Assembly: GCF_022447245.1 (NCBI RefSeq)
Contig: NZ_JAKVBC010000021.1
Span: forward strand, 42,737 to 66,736
From: Kordia sp.
GTDB lineage: Bacteria > Bacteroidota > Bacteroidia > Flavobacteriales > Flavobacteriaceae
Direction of reading: 5' to 3'
Length of the DNA: 24,000 nucleotides
Positions 1,132 through 15,587 of the stretch are shown piece after piece. The notes beneath the pieces were generated by a model. It did not search any database and was not told the origin of the DNA. It was given only the letters and a program-made list of their open reading frames with translations. Position 1 is the stretch's first letter. Each line of letters begins with the position of its first letter. The position numbers and the translations under genes were made by a program.

Positions 1132-1884
1132 TTAGTTTCTAGTATTTTCTACTTTTACACAACTCTTTACAATGGTTTCTATTATTCTTTTCGGATCGCA
1201 AGCATACACGCCTGAACTCCAAACAGGATTTGCTTCAATGAGCGCCCAACCTTTGTTTGAAATGTAGCCAACATCAATGACAACTGCTTCAGGCAATTCT
1301 ATGGTTTTGTCAGCTAGGAATTCATCTAGAAAAGAAAACATTGCTGCTTCTTCATTTTTCAATATGCAATCTTTCAATTGAATTTCTCCATTATAGATAT
1401 AAGTTGACCAAGTTTGGACTTTTCTTTGAATGATAAAACAGCGAACTTCAATTGCCCAACTTACGACATCGGAAACGAAGACTTCTATGTTTTTATCAAT
1501 CGTACTGTAACCCTGGATTTCTTCTACGGAAGTGTACACACCTGCAGGGAAAAACTTGAAATCAACAGGTTTTATAAACTTGTTTTGAACGTTTTCAATA
1601 TTGCCAAAACGATTGTACTGAATAGTACGCAGTGTATATTTTAAAGGAACACTTGCCAACCAATCATCTGTAGGTTTTAGGAGTTTTAAATTGCATTGTT
1701 CTGCAACAATTGTGGTGAATAAATCTTCTCCATAAACCGCAATCACATTTTGTCGATATTCCTGAGGAACATTCCAACTTCCAAATCGCATCGCAGTAAA
1801 TTCTGTGTCAATCGTTGCCTGATTGATAATCATAGAATCTTCTGAGAAGTTTGGTGACAGTACGATGATTTTTTGTGTGTTCAT
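1132..1884 (-). CDS. small ATP-grasp enzyme, R2K-clade (DUF4343-like)
   Basis: 250-aa ORF with ATP-grasp-like blocks FIKPVDFKFFPAGVY, EVRCFIIQRKV and VIDVGYISNKGWALIEANPVWSSGVY (E-x-N metal/ATP site). It shares an ATGA start/stop overlap with the upstream gene. Confidence 0.6.
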   Translation of the reverse strand: MNTQKIIVLSPNFSEDSMIINQATIDTEFTAMRFGSWNVPQEYRQNVIAVYGEDLFTTIVAEQCNLKLLKPTDDWLASVPLKYTLRTIQYNRFGNIENVQNKFIKPVDFKFFPAGVYTSVEEIQGYSTIDKNIEVFVSDVVSWAIEVRCFIIQRKVQTWSTYIYNGEIQLKDCILKNEEAAMFSFLDEFLADKTIELPEAVVIDVGYISNKGWALIEANPVWSSGVYACDPKRIIETIVKSCVKVENTRN

Positions 1885-2552
1885 GATTTCTTTCTATTCT
1901 TTACCATCATTATAAATAGTTCTAAATGCTTTTGCAATGCTTCCGAATCTGCTTCTTTTCGCAATAGATAGTGTTCCAATTCAGGAAAGGTTTTAATGAT
2001 TGCTTCTTTGGTATATAATTCAACATCCGCAAATAAAGCAATCGTCATTCCCAACTGAAATGCAAAGGTTTTATACACTTCTATGACGGAACCGTTTTTG
2101 CCAAAATCTGTATAGTTTTTGAGTTCAATCGTATCTAACAATTCTATTTGCATGTTCACATCTGCACGCAATGCTGCTTTTGCTTGTATACGTAAGTCAG
2201 TTCTTGTAAAATGTCCTACCAAGGTTCGAGCACATCGTACAATACGCGATTCTAAAATTCTAGGAACGGTACGTTGTATATGATTTTGATAGACTTGCTC
2301 ATGTAAATCATAGGTTGTAAAAAGTGCATTGTTCAGCTCGTCAGCACTACCTTTGAAGTTTTGAACGACAATTCCGTTTTTTACAATTGCTAAGTTCGCA
2401 TTCACAGGTTTTGTAGTGTTGAAAATCGTTTGTGCTGTATACATTTTTACAACCTCATGATTTTTTTTGGTATCATTCAAACTATCTACAAAAAAACATA
2501 CATCGAGATCTTCTGAGTTTTTTGAGCCGAATATTTGATATGAAGGTTTCAT
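1881..2552 (-). CDS. predicted Pol-beta-fold nucleotidyltransferase
   Basis: 223-aa ORF. N-terminal FGSKNSEDLDVCFFV fits the G-S...D-x-D nucleotidyltransferase signature, followed by a helical C-terminal region. It is packed between the Pnkp and ATP-grasp genes (9-nt gap and 4-nt overlap). Confidence 0.45.
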   Translation of the reverse strand: MKPSYQIFGSKNSEDLDVCFFVDSLNDTKKNHEVVKMYTAQTIFNTTKPVNANLAIVKNGIVVQNFKGSADELNNALFTTYDLHEQVYQNHIQRTVPRILESRIVRCARTLVGHFTRTDLRIQAKAALRADVNMQIELLDTIELKNYTDFGKNGSVIEVYKTFAFQLGMTIALFADVELYTKEAIIKTFPELEHYLLRKEADSEALQKHLELFIMMVKNRKKS

Positions 2553-2561
2553 CCTGTTAGT

Positions 2562-3443
2562 TTAAAAGTTTCCGTAGAAGACTTGAAAGCATGGAAGTTG
2601 TAGTTTTTGCCTCCATAAATCCACTACTTGGTTTCTATCGTCTAATACGAACTCGATGTAATAATTGTTTTCAATATTGTTTGTAAATAATTCTTCTTTG
2701 ATGATGGAATCTTTTCGATTGTCTTTCGCTTTTCGCATCCACAATGCGTCGTATTCTACCTCATATTTTTCTAACCAACGCTCTGTTTCTGGTTGATACG
2801 TTCCATCTCTGCCAGATAGTAACAAGATTTTAAATCCTAAGTTTTTATAGTTTTTAACTAAGTTCACAATTGGAATGTTTGGCAAATCTTGTTCACATTT
2901 TTTGCCTTCAAATGGACTTCTGTTATTGATTAAAGATAGCGTTCCATCTAAATCGCAAATAATTGCTTTTGGTAGTGAAGCATCTTGGACTCTCACTTCA
3001 TTTTTTAATCTCTTTTCACCTTTTAGTTGCTTATGCATTTTAAGGATGACTTCTCTTCCGACGGGATTTTCGCGTTTTGAATCTCTTAGAATCGCTTCAT
3101 TGACATCAATCTCCATAATTTTCTCTTCTACTTTCACCTGATGTCCTGTTTCTGCTCGGTAATCAGCAGCAATTTGCTGAATACGTTCTAGGTTCGATTT
3201 ATCAAGATTTGTATCGTCAACAATGACATGTTTTCCATGAATTAGCGCTTCTTTGATTAGGAAATCGCGTGTGCTTTTGATGAATTTTTCATTTCCTTTT
3301 GAGAAATGTCCGTTATCCAGCATAGCGCGTAAACTATCGCGATTGATACGTTTATACATTCCTGGGTTTTCTGAAACGAGTTTCTTTGCGTATGTTGATT
3401 TTCCTGAAGCAGGAATTCCTTTTAGTATGATTATCTTTTTCAT
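2562..3443 (-). CDS. pnkp: bifunctional polynucleotide 5'-kinase / 3'-phosphatase (T4 Pnkp-like)
   Basis: N-terminal P-loop GIPASGKST is followed by HAD phosphatase motifs CDLDGTL, LLSGR and LDDR. The order is colinear with phage T4 Pnkp as I recall it (MKKIILTIGCPGSGKST ... DVDGTL ... DDR). I prefer ATG 3443 (MKKIIILKG) to the ORF-track start at 3482. Confidence 0.85.
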   Translation of the reverse strand: MKKIIILKGIPASGKSTYAKKLVSENPGMYKRINRDSLRAMLDNGHFSKGNEKFIKSTRDFLIKEALIHGKHVIVDDTNLDKSNLERIQQIAADYRAETGHQVKVEEKIMEIDVNEAILRDSKRENPVGREVILKMHKQLKGEKRLKNEVRVQDASLPKAIICDLDGTLSLINNRSPFEGKKCEQDLPNIPIVNLVKNYKNLGFKILLLSGRDGTYQPETERWLEKYEVEYDALWMRKAKDNRKDSIIKEELFTNNIENNYYIEFVLDDRNQVVDLWRQKLQLPCFQVFYGNF

Positions 3444-3450
3444 TTTTTCT

Positions 3451-4479
3451 CTAATTAAATTCGTTTGAATACGCTTTTTCAAATGTTGGACGAATGTATC
3501 TCCAAATAATTTGATCGTATTTTTTGTTGTTTTTCATCGCAAATAAAATTGCTGGATATTGAAAGGTTTTAAAGTACGCTGCGGTTTCTCTATCGGTTGC
3601 CAATTCTTTGTACGCTGCTTTTGCGATGTTTTCAATGTTTGTGAAATTAGCTCGTAATTCCGCTTCTACTTTTCGTACCCACGTATAAAATTCGTCTGGT
3701 ACATTTTCAATCCATTGCGTCAAAGTTCCTTTTGTTTTTAAGGTTTCCCAAATAGTTAATGAAGAAACTTGCGTTACAATTTTATGCAATTCAATATAAT
3801 CTTCAAACTTGATCTTTACTCGAAAACCGTTTTCAAACTGAATAACAAATCCTTCTTGATTTTTCCAGTTTAACGCTTTTAATTCTAATAAAGAAGAAAA
3901 GTTATAACGTGTTGGTAATGGAAATCCAATGTCTTGTAATGCTTCATTTTTTCCAGTAGCTGTATCTACGATGGCTAATAAAACCAATTTTTCTTCGGTA
4001 CCGTAATCTACGATAATTCTGTTTTCTGGGTAAATAATTTCAAAAACATAGGTTTTACTTCTATCCAATTTCTCAAAAGTATTGGCATATATTTCATGCA
4101 ATAACTTCGTTGCTTTTAGGGCTTGTTTGCTTGTAAACGAACCTCTAGTTGCTATATATGGCGTATTTTTTAACCAGTATAAAATACCCAATGAACCATC
4201 CATTTTTTCAAATACGTTAAATGGTACGTTTGGCAATTTATCGTATCCAATTTCTTCTACATTGAAGAACTTTTGAATAGGATTTGCTACAATATTATAG
4301 TCTTCATCCAAGATTAATCCTCTGCATTGCAAGGTTTCTTTGGTCCAATATTGATCATATTGCGCAGCTTGCGTATAGTTATATATCCAAAGATTTGCGT
4401 TTGGATGCTTACAGTTATGAATGTAACCATCAGTCATTGCTTGTTTCAATTTTTCGATATGTACTACACTTGTGTTCAT
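3451..4479 (-). CDS. ATP-dependent RNA ligase, Rnl1 (T4 gp63-like) family
   Basis: 342-aa ORF with nucleotidyltransferase motif I K-x-D-G in FEKMDGSLG. Blocks CRGLILD, KFFNVEE, FEIIYPENRIIV and EGFVIQF.NGFRVKIK are colinear with recalled T4 Rnl1 blocks (ECRGIMFE, EKFFNL, TKEDGSL, FEFVAPTNRIV, EGYVAV..GSHFKIK). Confidence 0.8.
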   Translation of the reverse strand: MNTSVVHIEKLKQAMTDGYIHNCKHPNANLWIYNYTQAAQYDQYWTKETLQCRGLILDEDYNIVANPIQKFFNVEEIGYDKLPNVPFNVFEKMDGSLGILYWLKNTPYIATRGSFTSKQALKATKLLHEIYANTFEKLDRSKTYVFEIIYPENRIIVDYGTEEKLVLLAIVDTATGKNEALQDIGFPLPTRYNFSSLLELKALNWKNQEGFVIQFENGFRVKIKFEDYIELHKIVTQVSSLTIWETLKTKGTLTQWIENVPDEFYTWVRKVEAELRANFTNIENIAKAAYKELATDRETAAYFKTFQYPAILFAMKNNKKYDQIIWRYIRPTFEKAYSNEFN

Positions 4480-4518: not shown

Positions 4519-4537
4519 TACGCATTTATTTTGCGTA
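4519..4537. promoter_or_regulatory. operator copy A: TACGCAT-TTATT-TTGCGTA
   Basis: 19-bp inverted repeat 40 nt upstream of the ligase start, in the divergent gap to the rhodanese gene. The 18-nt left flank (4501..4518) matches the flank of copy B at 14 of 18 positions. Confidence 0.6.
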
Positions 4538-5365: not shown

Positions 5366-7219
5366 TTATTTTGATTGTTTAAAAGGTTTTAAGAAACTAT
5401 CTTTTTCTAGGTTTTCCAACGAAAAATCAAAGTCAGCTTGTTCCTTATTCGTAACAATTTCTGCACCTAACATTTGTACAATTTTGTTAAATGATAATGG
5501 TTTGCTCCATTGTTGGTACAATGCTTTTGTGGCTAAATTTGAGATTTCTGAGTTTCCAGAAACTCTTGCATTACCAGCACCAAAGTTTAATAATACAAAG
5601 CATTGTTTATCTTCCTCTGGAATCATCATTCCTAAAATGGTTTGCCATTGTACCGAAGCACATTTCACTTCTGCAAACAAATTATTTGGATTCATCATAT
5701 AGTTGTAATTGATGGAATCTCCTTTACCAATAATGATTTTATAATTGCAAGTTGCACTTCCAGAAAATACATTGTTGTTAATTAATGTAGGCATTTTTAA
5801 ACCTTGATTTGCGTATAAATATTCTGCCGCACCATTTGGCGCATCGGTCATATCACCTGAATACATTAAGTTTCCTTTTTGTTGGTTGTAGGTTGCGTTC
5901 CAACCAATTTTACCACCAATATTTAAACCAGATAGGTCTAAATCATGTGCACCCCATGCATTTTCCCAATATATACCAACGGCTAATTTTTTACCGTAAA
6001 AACGCGTACCAGTTGGAATGTTACCAACATACATTTTTTCAGAAGTTGGCAATGCATATGTTACATCTTCTGGTAAGAAAATTTTCTTGTCAGATAAATC
6101 AAAACGTTGCTTTATATATCTTAATATAAACGCATAGTTTTTTTCATAAATTTCTCCTTCATGCGTATACAATTTCTGCTTTGCTTTTTGCAACGTTGCA
6201 TTGTTTCCTAAGCAAGTAACAGTAATGGTATTTGATTTTACCCACGATTTACCATTACGAATTCTGTATAAAAAGGCATCTTGACCATTCATTCTACTGT
6301 AGCAAGCCGATAAAGCTTTGAATAAGGCAAATGGTGTTGCATTGTCTAACCAACGATTATCATTTGCGGTTAGTAACATATTTGTTACATTGTTCAATGA
6401 GTTTGAAACAAATGGTTTGTGATACTTTTTTGAAAGCTTACTAATCTTGTTAATTGTTTTTGGAGCTTTCGTTTTATATGCTAGGAACAATGGTTTGAAA
6501 CGATTGAAGATTTCAGCCAATTTTTCCAAACCAAATTTGTTAAATGCTTGTGTTGGATTATACGAACTGTTTTTAATCAATTCGATTAATTCATCATTTT
6601 TAATTAACAAAGTTGTGTCCGTACTTCTGTAGATGATGTATCTGAAAAACTCTACAGCATCTTTTGGATAAATGTTATAATACTCTGCTAACTTTATAAT
6701 AGCTTCTTTGTTTTTGATGTTTTCGTTACCAGTAAACTTGTATTTTAATTCATCTGCCAAGATTGAGATCAGGTCATCAATAGTTTCAAAAGTCAATGCT
6801 ATACCAGATTGTAACAAAGACAAGGATTTTTCTTGCATTTCTGCAACTGTATATGCTTTAATGACTTTGTATGATAATTTGATATTAGGAATGTTTAATA
6901 TTTCAGACGGAATGTAAATTTCGCTTTGGAAATTACTTCCATATGTAGAAATATAATGCATTATTTGTTCTGTTAATAATTTGCTACGAGAGCTATTCTT
7001 AATAGTACTCCATGACTTATGGAAGGTTTTGTTTAGATCATTACCGTTTAACTTCTCTTTCTTGTAATACTGGATGATTCTTTTCTTAGCCCAGAGCGCT
7101 TTTTCCTCAATAATATATCCTTCATCTGTAATGAATGGTTTGTTTTCTGAGCTTTTTCCAAAAATACTTAACGTTTTTTCTTTGGCGATAACAGCGTTAA
7201 ATAATTTTAATGTTTTCAT
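5366..7219 (-). CDS. 617-aa protein: long mainly helical N-terminal region of unknown family plus TerD-like C-terminal domain
   Basis: The long ORF is certainly coding. The C-terminal segment AHDLDLSGLNIGGKIGWNATYNQQKGNLMYSGDMTDAPNGAAEYLY parallels the TerD pattern (DLDxSxxxL..GKV..FYN..HSGDNxTGEG). I could not assign the N-terminal ~400 aa by eye. Confidence 0.5.
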   Translation of the reverse strand: MKTLKLFNAVIAKEKTLSIFGKSSENKPFITDEGYIIEEKALWAKKRIIQYYKKEKLNGNDLNKTFHKSWSTIKNSSRSKLLTEQIMHYISTYGSNFQSEIYIPSEILNIPNIKLSYKVIKAYTVAEMQEKSLSLLQSGIALTFETIDDLISILADELKYKFTGNENIKNKEAIIKLAEYYNIYPKDAVEFFRYIIYRSTDTTLLIKNDELIELIKNSSYNPTQAFNKFGLEKLAEIFNRFKPLFLAYKTKAPKTINKISKLSKKYHKPFVSNSLNNVTNMLLTANDNRWLDNATPFALFKALSACYSRMNGQDAFLYRIRNGKSWVKSNTITVTCLGNNATLQKAKQKLYTHEGEIYEKNYAFILRYIKQRFDLSDKKIFLPEDVTYALPTSEKMYVGNIPTGTRFYGKKLAVGIYWENAWGAHDLDLSGLNIGGKIGWNATYNQQKGNLMYSGDMTDAPNGAAEYLYANQGLKMPTLINNNVFSGSATCNYKIIIGKGDSINYNYMMNPNNLFAEVKCASVQWQTILGMMIPEEDKQCFVLLNFGAGNARVSGNSEISNLATKALYQQWSKPLSFNKIVQMLGAEIVTNKEQADFDFSLENLEKDSFLKPFKQSK

Positions 7220-7301
7220 TTTCTTTATTGTGATTTAAAATAATAAGTGAGGTGTATGCTTTCTTTGAATGAATGTGTAATAGGAACACCTTTTACCTAT
7301 T

Positions 7302-7337
7302 TAAAAAGACGAAGAGTACTATATCCACTATACTCTT
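7302..7337 (-). terminator. intrinsic-terminator-like hairpin inside the leader of the 617-aa gene
   Basis: Minus strand reads AAGAGUA-uaguggauauag-UACUCUU followed by cgUCUUUUU. The stem is 7 bp, and the hairpin lies ~85 nt upstream of the start codon at 7219. Confidence 0.45.
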
Positions 7338-7361
7338 TCGAGCACTGGAGTCGAACCAGTT

Positions 7362-7444
7362 TATAGGAACTCTTTGTGTCATTTTTTGAAAACTAACGGA
7401 AAGTAGGATCTTGGAAAAATAATAGGAACTTTCTGTGTCAGTTT
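7362..7444. repeat. two 24-nt direct repeats, 20/24 identical
   Basis: 7362..7385 is tataggaactctttgtgtcatttt and 7421..7444 is aataggaactttctgtgtcagttt. A third ATAGGAAC core lies at 7280..7287. Confidence 0.7.
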
Positions 7445-7529: not shown

Positions 7530-7548
7530 TACGCAATTATTTTGCGTA
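7530..7548. promoter_or_regulatory. operator copy B: TACGCAA-TTATT-TTGCGTA (perfect palindrome)
   Basis: 19-bp perfect inverted repeat upstream of the leader and the 617-aa gene. Its flank ACAAATGTTTTATAGAGA is shared with copy A. Confidence 0.6.
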
Positions 7549-7590: not shown

Positions 7591-7898
7591 TCAGTATGTT
7601 TTGGGGAAGAAATATGTAAAAAAAGCGAGCCGAAGTTCGCTAAAAGTTAATCCTGAATTTAACAAAACATGTGGAAATACTGAATTACAATTTAAGTGAC
7701 AAGATCCTTCGCGACTTGCGCAAATATTTGTTAAACAACGATCAGTTATCCCAACAGGACACTGATTATTACAAGATGTTGCTGTAACACAACCAATAAC
7801 TTCTGAAATATTGATTGCTCCACCACTTAAATTCAATTTGCTTAAAGATTATATTGATTTTTGTTGAGACTCAAGTTTTTAAGATTTCTTTTCTTCAT
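7591..7898 (-). pseudogene. frameshifted paralog of the GG-leader Cys-rich peptide
   Basis: Leader MKKRNLKNLSLNKNQYNL (7898..7845) stops at TAA 7844..7842. The rest of the leader and the core (SLSKLNLSGG-AINISEVIGCVTATSCNNQCPVGITDRCLTNICASREGSCHLNC..) lie in the -1 frame from 7848. The two frames overlap stop-free only at 7845..7848. The core frame also reads through its own terminator hairpin. Confidence 0.6.
7617..7641 (-). terminator. intrinsic terminator (UUCG-loop hairpin + U7)
   Basis: Minus strand reads AGCGAAC-UUCG-GCUCGCU (one A.C mismatch) followed by UUUUUUU. It is near-identical to the terminator at 8003..8034. Confidence 0.6.
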
Positions 7899-8002
7899 AA
7901 TACATGATTTTAAAATTGATAATGAATTAAAAGTAACGGATAGTCGAATCTCATAAAACAAACAGCTATCGCAATTTAGTGAATTATAGTAATCTTTAAA
8001 CA

Positions 8003-8034
8003 GTAGAAAAGAAAAGCGAACCGAAGTTCGCTTT
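8003..8034 (-). terminator. intrinsic terminator (UUCG-loop hairpin + U-tract)
   Basis: Minus strand reads AAAGCGAAC-UUCG-GUUCGCUUU followed by UCUUUUC. It begins 8 nt after the stop of ORF 8042..8260. Confidence 0.75.
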
Positions 8035-8041
8035 ATATTTA

Positions 8042-8260
8042 TTAAACTCTTGGTTTGCTGATACATTCTCCTGGTCCGCATTTTGTATGATATTGACATG
8101 TGTGACATTGAGTAGGCATTGTTGCAGGCGGACACGTAAATGTATGGCAAGATGCAATGCAAGAGTTATCGAAGCTTTCATTTCCTCCGAATATAGAAGT
8201 AGATAAATCAGAAATTGATTTTTTGTTTAGGCTTAATGATTTTAAATTTTTTTTCTTCAT
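8042..8260 (-). CDS. double-glycine-leader, Cys-rich bacteriocin/RiPP-precursor-like peptide (72 aa)
   Basis: Leader MKKKNLKSLSLNKKSISDLSTSIFGG is followed by a 46-aa core with 7 Cys (NESFDNSCIASCHTFTCPPATMPTQCHTCQYHTKCGPGECISKPRV). The gene has its own strong terminator. Confidence 0.7.
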   Translation of the reverse strand: MKKKNLKSLSLNKKSISDLSTSIFGGNESFDNSCIASCHTFTCPPATMPTQCHTCQYHTKCGPGECISKPRV

Positions 8261-8843: not shown

Positions 8844-9500
8844 TTAAATATTTGCAATTTTAGTGAAGAACTGCGCAATCTTTTTACGTAGTGAAGTTTT
8901 TTCTTGAATTATTGGTTTTTGTACTATTTCTTTAACTAGAATCTTTTCTGGTTCACCAAAGACAATTACTTTTTTAGAAGAATATGAAGTGCATGCTTCT
9001 AGTTTTGTTAGAATATTAAGTGCAAGATTTCGAATTTCAGGGTTTATTATTGCTGTGTCTTCTAAAAAAGGATTTTGAAACATAACATTCAAATCATAAT
9101 AATAATCACGAAATTTATAAGATATGTTGTACGTTTCATCTGGATTAAAGTCAAACTCTTTAATCATTTTGCCAAGAATTGAATATAGAGTATTTACATT
9201 TTTAGTTTGTAAAATTTTGATACATGATTGCTCTAAGATGAAGACTTTTATAAAGTCATCACCATATTGAATACGAGATTCCTGTTCAAGTTCTGATAAA
9301 CAGCTTTCTGATCGATAATTGATGGTAAGTATTGTGTAGAAAAATGAATTTTTTTCTAGGTTGTTTAAGATGTTTTCACAACCATAGAGAAATTCTTCAA
9401 ATCCAGAAATGGATTGTTTGCCAACTAAGGTATTATATATCTCTAATTGTAAAGTTTCCATGTTATAATGGTTAAAAAACGAGCAAAAACAATTAGCCAT
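8844..9500 (-). CDS. hypothetical protein, no recognisable motif
   Basis: Long ORF directly downstream of the exonuclease gene. The first ATG is at 9500, with an alternative at 9461 (METLQLEIYN); the ORF-track start 9512 is a TTG. Operator copy D lies inside its last codons. Confidence 0.5.
   Translation of the reverse strand: MANCFCSFFNHYNMETLQLEIYNTLVGKQSISGFEEFLYGCENILNNLEKNSFFYTILTINYRSESCLSELEQESRIQYGDDFIKVFILEQSCIKILQTKNVNTLYSILGKMIKEFDFNPDETYNISYKFRDYYYDLNVMFQNPFLEDTAIINPEIRNLALNILTKLEACTSYSSKKVIVFGEPEKILVKEIVQKPIIQEKTSLRKKIAQFFTKIANI
8872..8890. promoter_or_regulatory. operator copy D: TGCGCAA-TCTTT-TTACGTA
   Basis: Same TRCGYAA-N5-TTRCGYA architecture and same TCTTT spacer as copy C. 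It lies ~200 nt upstream of the S24 peptidase start and overlaps the 3' end of ORF 8844..9500. Confidence 0.45.
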
Positions 9501-10167: not shown

Positions 10168-10186
10168 TACGCAATCTTTTTACGCA
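10168..10186. promoter_or_regulatory. operator copy C: TACGCAA-TCTTT-TTACGCA
   Basis: Lies in the divergent gap between the exonuclease gene (start 10073) and the WYL regulator gene (start 10280). This position is typical of an autoregulated divergent promoter. Confidence 0.55.
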
Positions 10187-10223: not shown

Positions 10224-10279
10224 ATGTAGATATGTTGAGTCTTATTTCGAAATGGATGATTTTAACTTATACTATACGC

Positions 10280-11293
10280 ATGGCAATTAATAAAAACGCA
10301 CTGATTCGATATAAAACGATAGACAAATGTTTGCAAAATCATTATCGTCAATGGACCTTAAATGATTTGATTGAAGCTTGCTCAGACGCTTTACACGAAT
10401 ATGAAGGTCGTGAAGTAAATGTAAGTAAACGAACCGTTCAACTCGATATTCAAATGATGCGTAGTGATAAATTGGGTTACAACGCGCCCATTGTGGTATA
10501 CGATCGTAAGTATTATAAATATGAAGATGAAGAGTATTCCATCACAGATATTCCATTGACAGAAAACGATATGAATGTATTGTCTGAAACTGTAGAAATG
10601 TTGAAGCAATTCAAAGATTTCTCGTTATTCTCAGAATTAGGTGGCATTATACAGCGTTTGGAAGATAAGGTATATACGGAAAAAACACATCAAGCTGCGA
10701 TTATTCATTTAGATAAAAATGAAAATTTAAAAGGATTGCAACACTTGGATTTGTTGTATCAGGCGATTTTAAAAAAAATTGTGTTACGATTAACGTATCG
10801 TTCGTTTAAGGCACGTGCCGCCTCCGAAATTATTTTCCATCCATTCATTCTAAAAGAATACAACAATCGTTGGTTTTTGATTGGAGTCATAGGCAATAAG
10901 CAACAGATTACCACTTTTGCTTTAGACCGAATTATCAATGTCGATTACGATTTAGATATTCCATACAGAAATGAAGCGTTTAATGGAGATGAGTATTATA
11001 AAAATACCATTGGAGTTACGGTTTTAGATCAAAAACACATTCAACGTATTGTGCTTAAAATAGACAAAAGCAACGCGCCGTATGTAACTACGAAGCCTTT
11101 TCATACTACGCAGGAAATTATTTCGGTACACGAAGATGGAAGTATTACAGTGCTATTACAAGTACATATTAATTTTGAATTGGAACGTTTGATTCTTGGT
11201 TTTGGTGATTCTATTGAAGTGATTGAGCCGACATTGTTACGCAAACGCATTCGAAAAAAGTTAGAAGCGGCAGTCAGTAAGTATACAGAGTAA
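10280..11293 (+). CDS. WYL-domain transcriptional regulator (HTH + WYL + C-terminal extension)
   Basis: N-terminal wHTH-like NKNALIRYKTIDKCLQNHYRQWTLNDLIEACS...VSKRTVQLDIQMMRS, then a central WYL-type block FHPFILKEYNNRWFLIGV. The preferred start is MAINKNAL at 10280; the ORF-track start is 10232. Confidence 0.8.
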   Translation: MAINKNALIRYKTIDKCLQNHYRQWTLNDLIEACSDALHEYEGREVNVSKRTVQLDIQMMRSDKLGYNAPIVVYDRKYYKYEDEEYSITDIPLTENDMNVLSETVEMLKQFKDFSLFSELGGIIQRLEDKVYTEKTHQAAIIHLDKNENLKGLQHLDLLYQAILKKIVLRLTYRSFKARAASEIIFHPFILKEYNNRWFLIGVIGNKQQITTFALDRIINVDYDLDIPYRNEAFNGDEYYKNTIGVTVLDQKHIQRIVLKIDKSNAPYVTTKPFHTTQEIISVHEDGSITVLLQVHINFELERLILGFGDSIEVIEPTLLRKRIRKKLEAAVSKYTE

Positions 11294-11334
11294 TTTTATC
11301 TTTACATGATCTTTTAATCCATCAAATTCGCTAC

Positions 11335-13587
11335 ATGAAATTAAGATACTTTTTAGCATTATTTTTGTTAAGTTTTCAATTTGTTTTTTCGCAATCTGCC
11401 GCCATTACTATTGATGGTAATTTTGACGATTGGCATGAAGGTTTAACGACCTATACTGACACCTACGAGAATATTTCTGGAATTGATTTGTTAGAAATTC
11501 AAGTGACGAATGATGACGAGTTTTTGTTTATTAGAATTAAAGCCAATCAAGAATTTGATATTACGGATGACGATACGATTCTGCAAGAATTAGGATTGTT
11601 TATTGATGCAGATAATGATGCCAATACAGGTTTTGATATTCAACAAGATTATGGTTCGGAATTAGGATTACTGTTTACGCGTTTGTATGCACATTATAAT
11701 GTAACGCCCTATTCGCAAGTGAGTATGTCCGATTTAAAGGTAAGAATAGCGCCAACAGTAACTTCCGATGAGTTTGAAATTGCGATTGGTCGTCATGTAC
11801 TTCCTGACGGAATCAATCCATTATTTTCTTCGGCTACGATTAAAATATTAGTCAAAAACGATGACAATTTTGACAGAATTCCTAATATAGGAGATGTGTT
11901 TACGTATACATTTGATGAAACTCCAGTGCAAGCATATACACCAATAGATATCAATAAAGGTACTGCCGAACATATTAGAATTGTAGCGTATAATACCTTA
12001 TTAAATGGTTTGTTAGATACGGATCGTTTGGATGATTTTGAGCGAATTATAAAGTCATTAAATCCAGATATTATAGGATTTGTAGAAAGTTATAATACTT
12101 CCGAAGCCTATGTAAAAGGACTCTTTGATACATGGTTACCTTTAGGAACGGTTGATGGTTGGTATGTGGAACAGCATGGAGGAGAAGTCACGGTTTCTCG
12201 TTGGGAAATCACGCAGCAATGGAGTCATTTAACACGCCAATTTCCTGTATTGATCGATCTTCCTGATGAAACATATCACACAGATTTATTATTTACCAAT
12301 GCACATTTGAGTTGTTGTGGCGCCGATACATCTCGACAAGATCAAGTAGATCAATATGCTGCTTTTATTTTAGATGCGAAAACCTCAGGTGGATTGGTGG
12401 ATCTTCCAGAAAATACACCTTTTGTGTACGGTGGCGATTTAAATTTGGTAGGTTTATCACAGCAATTAGAGACTTTAAGAACAGGAGACATTCAAGATAC
12501 AGTAACGTATGGACAAGGCGGATTTTTAGATTGGGATGATACCGAAGTTAAAGAAGAAAATTGTTTGCAAGCGGATGTGCGAATGAATTATACCTGGCGC
12601 TCAGATTCACAAGTATTTCCTCCAGGGAAACTTGACTTTATTTTGTTTTCAGATTTTACGCTAGAAGCCGAAAAGTCTTTTGTGTTACAAACAGAATTGA
12701 TGTCTACAGGAAGATTGACTAACTATAATTTACAACAAAATGATACAGGAACTGCTTCTGATCATTTTCCAGTAGTGACTGATTTTTCGATTAAAACTGC
12801 TAGGGTTTCACCAATCGTGTATTTACAAGGAGCAGGAATTAATCCGTATGAAGGAGAAGAACATTTAATGCGTGACGATTTGCGTCGTAATAATCTATTA
12901 CCAACTACATCACCATATCAAGATGCATTGACTTGTGAAGCGACTGTTTTTGATACAACACTAAGTCAAGAGCACAATGATATTGTGGATTGGGTATATT
13001 TAGAATTACGTGATCCTGTGAATACTGCTCAAATTAAATATGGACGTTCTGCTTTATTACAACGTGATGGAGATATAGTAGATCTTGATGGAGTAACGAC
13101 AGCCGTAAAACTAAATGTACCGCCAGCAGATTATTATGTAGCTGTTCGTCATAGAAATCACTTAGGTGTCATGACAGTAGGAGAAATAGAATTGTCAGAT
13201 GCTATTGTATCGATCAACTTTGCGTTAGATTCTAATCTGATTAGTTATGGAAGCAACCCGCAAACACAATTTGGCCATACTTCAGGCTATTTTGGAATGT
13301 GGGCAGGAAATGTAAGTGCTAATGATGTAATTCAATATACAGGAACAAGTCCTGATGCGCCTGCTATTTTAAGTGAAGTACTTAATGATCCAGCGAACTT
13401 TTTAAACTTTCCAACCTTTACAATTTCAGAATATAATGTGCATGATGTTAATTTGGATGGAAACGTACAATACGCAGGAACTACACCAGATACGACGTTT
13501 ATTTTACAGAATGTATTGGCGCATCCAGGGAATTTCTTAAACTTTAGTACATATCAAATTCAAGAACAATTGCCAGAGCATGAATAG
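11335..13587 (+). CDS. secreted multidomain endonuclease/exonuclease/phosphatase (EEP) family protein
   Basis: Signal peptide MKLRYFLALFLLSFQFVFSQ. EEP blocks IRIVAYNTL, DIIGFVES, TNAHLS, YGGDLNLV and SDHFPVVTDF. The C-terminal region carries DVNLDGNVQY dockerin/calcium-binding-like repeats. Confidence 0.7.
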   Translation: MKLRYFLALFLLSFQFVFSQSAAITIDGNFDDWHEGLTTYTDTYENISGIDLLEIQVTNDDEFLFIRIKANQEFDITDDDTILQELGLFIDADNDANTGFDIQQDYGSELGLLFTRLYAHYNVTPYSQVSMSDLKVRIAPTVTSDEFEIAIGRHVLPDGINPLFSSATIKILVKNDDNFDRIPNIGDVFTYTFDETPVQAYTPIDINKGTAEHIRIVAYNTLLNGLLDTDRLDDFERIIKSLNPDIIGFVESYNTSEAYVKGLFDTWLPLGTVDGWYVEQHGGEVTVSRWEITQQWSHLTRQFPVLIDLPDETYHTDLLFTNAHLSCCGADTSRQDQVDQYAAFILDAKTSGGLVDLPENTPFVYGGDLNLVGLSQQLETLRTGDIQDTVTYGQGGFLDWDDTEVKEENCLQADVRMNYTWRSDSQVFPPGKLDFILFSDFTLEAEKSFVLQTELMSTGRLTNYNLQQNDTGTASDHFPVVTDFSIKTARVSPIVYLQGAGINPYEGEEHLMRDDLRRNNLLPTTSPYQDALTCEATVFDTTLSQEHNDIVDWVYLELRDPVNTAQIKYGRSALLQRDGDIVDLDGVTTAVKLNVPPADYYVAVRHRNHLGVMTVGEIELSDAIVSINFALDSNLISYGSNPQTQFGHTSGYFGMWAGNVSANDVIQYTGTSPDAPAILSEVLNDPANFLNFPTFTISEYNVHDVNLDGNVQYAGTTPDTTFILQNVLAHPGNFLNFSTYQIQEQLPEHE

Positions 13588-13595
13588 GGAATACG

Positions 13596-15587
13596 TTATT
13601 TTTCAATGAGTAACATCATGATGTGTGCAGCGCTCCAACTAAAGTTTTTGGCATTTAATCCTTTGCCTGTAAGCGGATGGTAATTTTCTCTGATAGGAAA
13701 ACCTTTTTCCAAAAGACCTTCACAACCTGCCAAAATCTGTAAACTAGCTTTGTCTGCTTCTGCTGTGAAACCATAATTGAGCAATCCTTTGACGCCAAAA
13801 TACGCTTGATCTAACCAATTTGGTCCACGCCAGTATCCTTTGAGAGGATTGAATTTTGGATGATCAGCACTCATGGTTTGAAACGGAACTTTTGTAAAAA
13901 ACTTGGCAGAATTCATCATGTTATTTTTAACACCGTCAGCTTGTACTTGCGTTGCAACTTTTGCCCATAATGGAGTCCAACCTTCAGAACCTTCACCTTT
14001 TATAAAAGTAGTTCCTTCAAGGTTTGTATCGTAAAACCACTGATCTGTAGCATCGTAAAATTGTTGTTGAATACGTTTTTTTAAAGCTTCTGCTTCTGTG
14101 GAAAACTTCTCAGCATCTTTATGATTTTCAATGGCATTTGCTAGCTCGGCTAAGAATAGTTTTTCAGCATATAAATATGCGTTTAAGTCTACAGATTCTT
14201 AATCGAGCGAATACGCACCTTCTACATTTTCTAAAATTTTGGAGTTGTCAAAACGAATGGCATTGTCCATTCCGCTTTCCCATTTGGCGGCAATCAAAGA
14301 ACCGTCAGTAGAACCATATTCACACAAGTCATCTTGGTCATGATCACGTTTTGCATACCACCAATAATGATACTTTTTAAGTTTTGGATACATATACTTT
14401 ACAAAGTCAATATCCTTGTCTTTTTCATACACTTTAGAAACTGCCCAAGCAGATAATGGCGGTTTGGTGTCTCTATAATTATGAGCTTCAATCGTAGTAT
14501 CGCGATAAACGCAATCGGCTACAAAACCATCAGGTTCTTGAAAAACAAACATCAACTTGATTTGCTCTTTTGCCAATTCTACATCAAAATAGGAAAGTCC
14601 CACCGCATGTTTCCATGAATCCCAAGACCAAAAACCATTAAACCATTTGTAATGATAACTTGGAAATAAACCTTCGTGCTTAATTTCTCCAGCAGGAATA
14701 CGCCAATTATTTTGTAAAGTCAAGATAGTTTTGGCAAGTAACGATGTGTATTTTTCTTCTGAAAATAGTTCCTTTTTTAACGTTTGAAGCTTGGTAAGTT
14801 GTTTATTTTTTTCAGATAGACGTTGTTTTACGATACTGTCAAAATTCACAGTTTGAATCAATGCTTGTTCATCCTCCCAAGAGTATTCTGGAAAGATAAA
14901 CGTTTGTGCGCAGATAAAACTTTTTTGCTCATTTGGCTGTAAATCTATGTCTTTAAAATAAGTTGTATATGTTGTACTGTCAATAGTTACAGAAGAAACA
15001 TCATTTAAAAATTGAATATATCCTTTAGCAGTTGTTTTATTAGAATTGACTTCAATACGGTTTCCTTTTTTAGAAAAGTGAATTCCATTATCAAACAGCT
15101 TTCCACTTAGTTGAGGTGTTATTGTTTGATCAGTATCAGACGTATTTGTGATGTTGTTTTTAATTAAAACAGTATGACCTGATAGATATACGAGTTGTTG
15201 TGATAAAGTAATTCCTTCGGACTTAAAGTTTTGTTCTAAATGACTAAGGTAACTTACAGAATTTGCAGGTTCCCACGAGTGATCTTTTAGGGTAAAATTT
15301 GCCAAAGATGTTCCTGCCCAAACACCGTTTTGTTCAGTCATTAAAAAAGGTCCAGAAAAACCTGAAACTGAAATTGTATCTGAGAGCGAATAAGCAAACC
15401 ATGCACCTTGATCAGAGAACATTAATCCAGATTTGTCAAATGCATGATCTGGAGTAATTGAAAAGTCTAGAATATTAGCACTGGCTTTATAATAACTGTG
15501 GTTATTAATGGTTTTAACAGGAGTTGGATTTGACTCACAACTTGCCAATATCACTATGAAGCATATAAAAACAACCTTTCTTAACAT
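13596..15587 (-). pseudogene. (alpha/alpha)6-barrel glycoside hydrolase, GH63/GH37 (YgjK/trehalase-like), interrupted by one in-frame TAA
   Basis: ORFs 14199..15587 and 13596..13919 are in the same frame. The sequence between them translates cleanly (..YSLD*ESVDLNAYLYAEKLFLAELANAIENHKDAEKF..WTPLWAKVATQ..). The only defect is TAA at 14201..14199. Also present are a lipoprotein signal MLRKVVFICFIVILASC and the motifs FWSWDSWKH and SWSAAHIMMLL. Confidence 0.75.

Follow-up and report, generated by a model that had tools for sequence, protein, structure and literature searches.

A TerD-fold protein and its tandem upstream RNA modules, in Kordia and in tailed phages, as a candidate counterpart of the Ro60/Y RNA pair

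Introduction

The stretch of DNA considered here ("the window": 24,000 nucleotides of a Kordia sp. genome, assembly GCF_022447245.1, contig NZ_JAKVBC010000021.1, positions 42,737 to 66,736) carries an accessory island with a gene for a 617-aa protein, P0001, and, immediately ahead of it on the same strand, three copies of a small structured RNA module. Gene and module accompany each other across bacterial and phage genomes. It is reasonably likely that they constitute a protein-RNA pair, that is, a ribonucleoprotein (RNP); by analogy, P0001 probably forms a particle of the Ro60/Y RNA kind for tRNA or RNA damage control, made from unrelated parts. The features that carry this argument are the following.

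5366..7219, minus: P0001 gene, stop codon included (open reading frame and translation, full-length relatives, AlphaFold2 model)
6092..7219, minus: N-terminal domain, aa 1-376, alpha/beta plus helices (family alignments)
5552..6091, minus: divergent TerD-fold beta-sandwich, aa 377-556 (Foldseek, hhalign)
5369..5551, minus: C-terminal helical tail, aa 557-617, end motif (I/F)D(L/F)S...L.KD(T/S)...(L/F)
7242..7301, minus: RNA module copy 3, GGUAAAAGGUGU then UCCUAU...ACACCUCACU (pattern scan; -9.8 kcal/mol, z -2.7)
7303..7380, minus: RNA module copy 2, GACACAAAGAGU then UCCUAU...ACUCUUCGUC, with the T-arm-like hairpin insert ACUGG-UUCGACU-CCAGU
7390..7444, minus: RNA module copy 1, plain hairpin, GACACAGAAAGU then UCCUAU...ACUUUCCGUU (-10.4 kcal/mol, z -3.3)

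The gene and its RNA module

The open reading frame (ORF) runs from ATG to stop at 5366-7219 on the minus strand; a first-pass annotation of the window had given these coordinates exactly, naming no strand. Full-length conservation across more than 1,000 clusters of relatives makes it a real gene. The long structured leader described in the same annotation does exist, at 7242-7444, but consists of three copies of a conserved RNA module rather than a single leader: the 400 nt upstream of the gene contain three copies of GTTCCTAT together with the T-arm-like GGTTCGACTCC, and all three modules fold as predicted. Copy 3 lies nearest the start codon, its 3' end 26 nt before the ATG, and the same element occupies this position in the orthologous loci L015, L003, L104, L105, and L106. 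Orthologous loci hold such elements in greater number than the window does. Copy 2, followed directly by a run of five U, has counterparts with a T-arm insert in L015, in phage contig L009, and in Synechococcus phage S-CRM01.

Each module follows the layout 5'-stem-A-N-A-(6 bp, ending GU)-UCCUAU...insert...U-(6 bp)-C-stem-3'. Its parts are a basal stem, a 3-nt bulge (A-N-A) facing a single C, a purine-rich 6-bp helix that ends in G-U, and a UCCUAU...U junction holding a variable insert. A simple pairing pattern was used to search bacterial loci, phage loci, and 80 IMG/VR viral loci, with shuffled-sequence controls. At least one perfect same-strand module was present in 76 of the 80 viral loci, and one of the four others ends 65 nt upstream of the family gene. 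The viral loci hold 191 modules on the strand of the gene, against one on the opposite strand and two in shuffled sequence; all eight bacterial loci checked have modules, as do the three isolated phages that carry the family (S-CRM01, a second Synechococcus phage, S-CBWM1, and gut phage Phass-1). A strict form of the module, sought through the whole 5.24-Mb Kordia genome, gave the three sites upstream of P0001 and one weak, chance-like hit, compared with two hits in the shuffled genome. Co-occurrence of gene and module is in this sense nearly universal and exclusive.

The module also covaries. The 222 modules comprise 54 distinct 6-bp helices and 52 distinct basal stems. Basal pairs 4 and 5, which played no part in detection, form in 97% and 81% of them, where sliding the partner gives about 50%; the U before the 3' strand, likewise outside the detection pattern, is present in 221. 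Since pairing extends to positions on which detection did not depend, the module is a real RNA structure.

Placement of the modules brings in a different explanation, in which they would be cis-acting leader elements only (operator, attenuator, or riboswitch) for a TerD-type stress or phage-exclusion protein that has no RNA job, and no free RNP would exist. Among the 191 viral modules, 172 lie within 500 nt and 138 within 250 nt upstream of the start. The last module ends a median of 26 nt before the start codon (quartiles 21-44; 85 loci), beside the ribosome-binding site, and a T run, as in an attenuator, follows 46 of the 222. That the Kordia genome has modules at no other place fits a leader as well. 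We nevertheless consider this explanation rather improbable. Two to six tandem copies occur per locus (two or three upstream copies in the majority of 93 loci), and their inserts can be T-arms or whole tRNA-like domains, the latter scoring as tRNA or YrlA. It is the variable insert that occupies the position expected of a ligand pocket; no canonical ter genes lie near P0001, the real ter cluster of the genome being on another contig. Moreover, detached copies are found 2.5 kb upstream within the tRNA array of S-CBWM1, just after the family gene in S-CRM01, and in Phass-1; modules that stand away from the gene, as in S-CBWM1 and Phass-1, argue for free RNAs.

Inserts that resemble tRNA

Inserts measure 11-107 nt (median 26) and take the form of a plain loop, a T-arm (as in copy 2 of the window), or a tRNA-like domain that is whole but permuted. 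Over its full length, the S-CRM01 element at L012:6622-6736 matches the YrlA model of Rfam (RF02553) at 35.9 bits (E 1.5e-5; gathering score 69 bits), and L015 scores 25.6 bits on the same model, again with gathering at 69. Some orthologous loci have tRNA genes in which a 40-55-nt insert in the anticodon loop holds the module; the Rfam tRNA model scores these genes at 55.7 and 48.6 bits. In the window itself, neither Rfam (including YrlA) nor ARAGORN gave a match. The Bacteroidota tRNA-like genes and phage locus L037 carry the module reversed, closed at the basal stem and open toward the tRNA body; since the module thus adopts two topologies, a hairpin and a form inside a tRNA-like anticodon loop, the helix itself is the conserved unit.

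A module that interrupts an anticodon loop could also be the object of catalysis. P0001 might be an enzyme (nuclease, end-processing, or modifying) acting on module RNAs or tRNAs, the modules serving as substrates, guides, or recognition handles; in one version, the module in tRNA-like genes would be an intron-like insert, cut by P0001 and resealed by RtcB or by Rnl1/Pnkp. Both pathways known to seal tRNA, through RtcB or through Rnl1 with Pnkp, are indeed represented among the neighbors of the family. By reading, the gene at L015 11640-11750 would, minus its insert, retain CUUUUAU, a normal Lys(UUU) loop. The other tRNA-like genes (number 1 of L015, and those of L016 and L037) leave no normal anticodon loop once the module is removed, and since only one in four such genes would keep a normal one, splicing is a minor part of the enzymatic explanation. 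In phages, the tRNA-like part shows the circular permutation of YrlA and could not become a tRNA; most modules are a short loop with no tRNA body. What the protein itself says on this point is taken up below.

Two domains and a tail

The AlphaFold2 model of P0001 (pLDDT 87.2, pTM 0.87, 120-sequence alignment) consists of an alpha/beta-plus-helical N-domain (1-330), a disordered loop (335-354) that the family alignment shows to be an insertion particular to P0001, a beta-sandwich (~377-556), and a short helical tail. Helices are modeled at 558-571 and 577-583 of the tail, where L599, S600, K606, and D607 are near-invariant.

The C-terminus had been called TerD-like on the strength of a sequence pattern, HDLDLSGL..GKIGW..YSGDMTDAPNG, which corresponds to residues 425-463, and the checks then proposed, structure prediction with Foldseek and profile comparison, bear this out for about 180 aa. 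Foldseek against PDB returned a single significant match to the P0001 model, chain 9a6r_B, on the sandwich (E 6e-5, TM 0.50 on target); this chain we presume to be the B. subtilis TerD-family protein YceC/SCP2. The solved TerD structures 2KXT and 3IBZ were not in the top 50 PDB matches. Searched against BFVD, the sandwich finds single-domain TerD-like proteins (probability 1.0, rmsd 4.0-4.1 A over ~180 columns, TM 0.52-0.59 on target length), and the full-length model finds 680-750-aa phage proteins of no assigned function (E 9e-22 to 4e-15). With hhalign, the C-domain (165 sequences) matches 21 Bacteroidota TerD proteins at a probability of 90.4% (E 1.4e-6, 138 columns, TerD positions 4-189), where the N-domain control against the same set gives 0.1%; a shallower comparison with the four TerD paralogs of the Kordia genome gives 41%. 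The alignment brings the G-x-x-W, DLDxS, and SGD motifs of P0001 into register with TerD, and the residues invariant in the sandwich are G415, W418, D426, D428, G439, W440, S454-G455-D456, G463-A464, and E466. Agreement between Foldseek and hhalign identifies the C-terminus as a divergent TerD domain, and a divergent one indeed: the Pfam model PF02342 matches neither P0001, nor its C-terminal 219 aa at E<=10, nor any of 47 family members.

The N-terminal part had been judged helical and unplaceable. It does fall outside every known family, but it is alpha/beta plus helices, not a ring of helical repeats. No profile relative was found in Pfam, NCBIfam, or PDB, and the best Foldseek PDB match has E 0.49 (probability <=0.13). 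Modeled without the rest of the protein, the N-domain drops to pLDDT 68, with confidence lost at 59-114 and 284-376, which suggests, as far as models go, that it packs against the TerD domain and that both domains form one unit. Fold assignment from a search with the lone N-domain was dropped, its matches being generic helical ones (14-3-3, TetR, TPR; E >= 0.49). Family members share an invariant polar and basic set here: H67 K68 S69 W70, Q85, H88 Y89, E106, N170, E172, and R193, followed by R240, K242, N257, H267, R309, and R321.

Several of these residues are of the kind found in active sites (H67-K68-S69, H88, E106, N170/E172, R193, R240/K242, H267, R321, and E394 besides), a further point for P0001 as an enzyme. 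Foldseek finds no likeness to a known nuclease or transferase fold, and with the tRNA-like genes described above taken into account, an enzymatic role seems unlikely, if less so than a role of the modules confined to the leader.

It is highly improbable that P0001 descends from Ro60/TROVE by divergence, or that it is simply a TerD protein of tellurite resistance, in spite of its TerD-like C-domain, a context that resembles rsr-yrlBA-rtcBA operons, and one partner RNA with a weak YrlA score. Canonical TerD proteins are single-domain, ~190 aa long, and encoded in ter clusters, such as the one this genome has elsewhere; PF02342 gives P0001 no score. A Ro60/TROVE identity was rejected on finding no TROVE (PF05731) or vWA Pfam match in P0001 and 46 relatives, the same Pfam TROVE model recovering the true TROVE gene of the genome. 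A fold of HEAT-repeat ring plus vWA was likewise rejected, as no Ro60 chain appears among the Foldseek PDB matches of the full model or the N-domain, and as TerD stands in the place of vWA in the second domain.

A large family, chiefly of phages

Sequence searches with P0001 gave no match in Pfam, NCBIfam, PHROG, PADLOC, or PDB sequences (phmmer included); nor did 47 diverse members scanned singly against Pfam, NCBIfam, PHROG, and PADLOC, or the family profile against PDB sequences. The family itself is large: a search of 90% clusters gave 1,781 relatives, and at 50% identity the family spans at least 1,359 clusters. Nearly all members are ~600 aa and full length, and most are from phages. The relatives include cellular ones: 83% identity in Kordia, and 66-73% in Chryseobacterium, Tenacibaculum, and Winogradskyella. 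Of 400 other Bacteroidota genomes sampled, only three have a full-length ortholog; among cellular genomes the gene is accessory and patchily distributed.

A second clade, 33-38% identical to P0001, resides in phage genomes. It includes 142 IMG/VR stretches and metagenomic contigs of 82 and 155 kb that carry PolB, RecA, dUTPase, and similar genes. Three isolated phages have a member, S-CRM01 (g174), S-CBWM1 (gp22), and Phass-1, in each case annotated as hypothetical. Neither protein family nor RNA motif was described in Pfam, NCBIfam, Rfam, or the literature searched; a jumbo-phage survey mentions TerD and TROVE, but separately, and a 2026 preprint on tRNA mimics deals with RNAs other than the module family.

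Neighbors in the island and beyond

The island around P0001 holds RNA-repair genes downstream on the same strand and a candidate regulator upstream.

66-2552, minus: R2K ATP-grasp protein, DUF434/DUF5616 protein, and a 223-aa protein (1881-2552) (Pfam, NCBIfam)
2562-3482, minus: Pnkp kinase/HAD phosphatase (Pfam, NCBIfam)
3451-4479, minus: Rnl1-type RNA ligase (Pfam, NCBIfam)
7530-7548, no strand: 19-bp palindrome TACGCAATTATTTTGCGTA, upstream of the RNA array and P0001 gene
9522-10073, minus: RNase T/KapD-like exonuclease (Pfam), recurring beside orthologs
10232-11293, plus: divergent WYL-WCX regulator (Pfam), recurring beside orthologs

A plus-strand rhodanese gene separates the P0001 gene from the Rnl1 ligase. 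Upstream come the 400-nt non-coding stretch, two small Cys-rich peptide genes, two unplaced ORFs, the exonuclease, and the WYL regulator. The operator copy that the first-pass annotation had assigned to the gene is the palindrome at 7530-7548, one of four in the window (4519-4537, 7530-7548, 8872-8890, and 10168-10186; consensus TRCGYAA-N5-TTRCGYA; 0.08 expected), each of which stands ahead of one transcription unit of the island. The palindrome is likely the operator of the neighboring WYL-WCX regulator at 10232-11293.

Bacterial orthologs have as neighbors RtcB (four loci), Rnl1 with Pnkp (here), RNase T (three), WYL-WCX (four), an RF-1-like gene (two), and DUF434/DUF5616 (two); a single locus shows no neighbor of these kinds. 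It had been asked whether orthologs always sit next to Rnl1/Pnkp operons and a conserved upstream RNA. For the RNA this holds, in 76/80 viral and 8/8 bacterial loci; for the operon it does not, RtcB taking its place in four loci and locus L107 having no repair genes. The one near-universal partner of the family is the RNA module, and most members are in phages without repair genes, which gives no support to the part of scaffold of the repair system that the first-pass annotation had considered for P0001. Among phages, the family gene lies inside tRNA arrays in S-CRM01 and S-CBWM1, Phass-1 has a tRNA gene ~400 nt upstream of it and a tRNA cluster ~6 kb away, and tRNA genes occur within 3 kb in 23 of 80 viral loci. 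Two viral loci have an adjacent Rnl1 or RtcB-like gene.

A distant paralog of 746 aa (E 2e-6; zinc-ribbon insert) occupies the same position in another flavobacterial island, L019 (G047:C23, 8391-11500), with Pnkp/Hen1, Rnl1, two copies of the 223-aa protein, TatD, and WYL. This island has an RNA array of its own, of two tRNA look-alikes with inserts plus hairpins that share GGTCAA-N7-TTACTTC, and a WYL-type palindrome similar in kind to that of Kordia precedes each RNA unit.

Other observations concern these neighborhoods in their own right. The 223-aa protein at 1881-2552 (minus) has no family match and travels with Rnl1/Pnkp; its two tandem copies in L019 are 41% and 30% identical to it. 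The Cys-rich peptide genes (7591-8260, minus) encode a leader, MKK(K/R)NLK.LSLNK, of the double-glycine bacteriocin/RiPP precursor type, and each is followed by a GC-hairpin terminator (8013-8034 and 7624-7641); the second, starting near 7896, meets a stop after 18 codons, and its Cys-rich part resumes in another frame. At 13596-15587 (minus), a GH63/MGH1-like glycoside hydrolase appears split into ORFs of 462 and 107 aa that lack the central part of the domain between them, so the gene is probably broken. RF-1-like genes lie between RtcB and the ortholog in L105 (5990-6697) and L106 (6313-7005), an arrangement that recalls RtcB-PrfH ribosome-rescue pairs. Phass-1 (L014) has six tandem modules of a UCCUUU variant at 10990-11450, 1.3 kb downstream of its family gene and close to tRNA genes and to an NAD-salvage cluster (nicotinamidase, PRPP synthase, NamPT). 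In the canonical ter cluster of the Kordia genome (contig C5:78.3-81.5 kb, L020-L023), a vWA (TerY-like) gene comes after four TerD paralogs in tandem; this cluster is unlinked to the island.

Likeness to known systems

Ro60 (Rsr) and its Y RNAs YrlA and YrlB are known from the rsr-yrlBA-rtcBA operon of Salmonella and from Deinococcus (PMC4201824, PMC7790460). As with P0001, the protein gene adjoins one or more small structured RNA genes; these share a helix with an internal loop or bulge and add a variable part, possibly a tRNA mimic (T-arm, closed acceptor stem, D-arm). Both families adjoin RtcB ligase and other RNA-repair genes, and both are found in phages. In both, too, a large RNA-facing domain (a predicted role in P0001) is joined to a smaller domain from a metal-binding family. 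The analogy to Ro/Y RNA systems drawn at the outset thus holds, and a dedicated RNA family with YrlA-like tRNA mimics gives it a much better footing. The protein itself is no relative of Ro60/TROVE: P0001 is non-homologous and has neither TROVE ring nor vWA domain. The module differs from Y RNA in its ANA/C loop and its GU-UCCUAU...U junction, and is absent from Rfam. Control would be by WYL in the P0001 locus, not RtcR, a module copy lies on P0001's own leader, the genome has a separate TROVE gene, and the binding of RNA by P0001 is a proposal.

With the TerD family (PF02342; Klebsiella TerD 2KXT/2KXV, Streptomyces 3IBZ), P0001 shares the beta-sandwich and the aligned G-x-x-W, D-L-D-x-S, and S/T-G-D motifs. 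It differs in falling below the Pfam threshold, in its fusion to a new 376-aa domain and a helical tail, in its location outside a ter cluster, and in an acidic GDGDDE stretch reduced to a single conserved Glu.

The same two-domain build is found over full length, by Foldseek and profile, in 680-750-aa phage proteins (A0A8S5LVH0 of Siphoviridae sp. ctFn287, H6SUA9 of Campylobacter virus IBB35, and A0A291I9M6 of Lactobacillus phage LpeD) and in the Bacteroidota paralogs L005-L008. All these proteins are longer, some with a zinc-ribbon insert, and none is characterized. The L019 paralog resembles P0001 in sitting with Rnl1, Pnkp/Hen1, WYL, and its own tRNA-like RNA array, but its RNA motif is another one, GGUCAA-N7-UUACUUC.

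Translational operators bound by the product of their own gene offer one more comparison, as with T4 RegA, gp32, and gp43 and with ribosomal-protein leaders. Module copy 3, like these, is a structured RNA site just upstream of a ribosome-binding site, to which P0001 is proposed to bind. The modules depart from such operators in their extra tandem copies and in occurring also inside tRNA-like RNAs and detached from the gene.

A candidate particle for tRNA and RNA damage control

Under the protein-RNA pairing favored here, P0001 would be to the module what Ro60 is to the conserved stem of Y RNA, its binding protein. In the resulting particles, the variable or tRNA-like part may engage tRNA-handling enzymes, anticodon nucleases, or damaged tRNAs, and the module copy ~26 nt before the start codon could let P0001 limit its own translation. 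The TerD domain may serve in docking or in sensing a metal or ligand. In Bacteroidota, the WYL regulator would switch the pair on together with RNA ligases (here Rnl1 and Pnkp); in phages, where the pair sits with phage tRNA genes, it probably helps to keep tRNAs usable during infection. Hughes et al. proposed that YrlA's tRNA-like domain might competitively inhibit an anticodon nuclease (PMC7790460), an idea that would explain why phages keep the pair among their tRNA genes.

Several observations pull the other way. That the last module sits so tightly before the start codon is accounted for just as well by a leader acting purely in cis, and the N-domain has no RNA-binding fold recognizable by Foldseek in the full model or alone. 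The acidic calcium motif of TerD is kept only in part, D426, D428, D456, and E466 being invariant and the GDGDDE run missing. Most phage loci, and L107 among the bacterial ones, lack a nearby RNA-repair gene; upstream of the more distant paralogs L017 and L018, no RNA array is obvious. Finally, a true TROVE/Ro60 gene (a 540-aa ORF) lies on the same contig, at C14:25.3-26.9 kb (L108/L109), ~21 kb before the P0001 gene; with this gene in the same genome, P0001 is no simple substitute for Ro60. A search around the TROVE gene gave no YrlA at E<=0.01.

Taken further, the pair may represent a separate, convergently evolved class of RNP, found widely in tailed phages and patchily in Bacteroidota. Its core would be a TerD-containing protein, equipped with a new domain for RNA binding or catalysis, that takes up tRNA mimics and hairpin RNAs; the particle would protect, decoy, or repair tRNAs in phage-host conflict, and its TerD part would couple activity to calcium or a nucleotide-like signal. 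For this fuller proposal we hold the balance to be even.

Outlook

What would be new here is a Ro/Y-RNA-like design realized with non-homologous parts. If the pairing of gene and module reflects binding, the family would be a second, unrelated solution to the Ro60/Y RNA design, and particles bearing tRNA mimics beside RNA ligases would have arisen more than once. The TerD fold would likewise gain a role outside tellurite-resistance loci. One protein, an RNA motif of ~50 nt with mutational targets, and a built-in leader reporter could together provide a test system for the guarding of tRNA against anticodon nucleases. For a very large orphan family of environmental phages, often found among tRNA genes, binding of the module would supply a first function.

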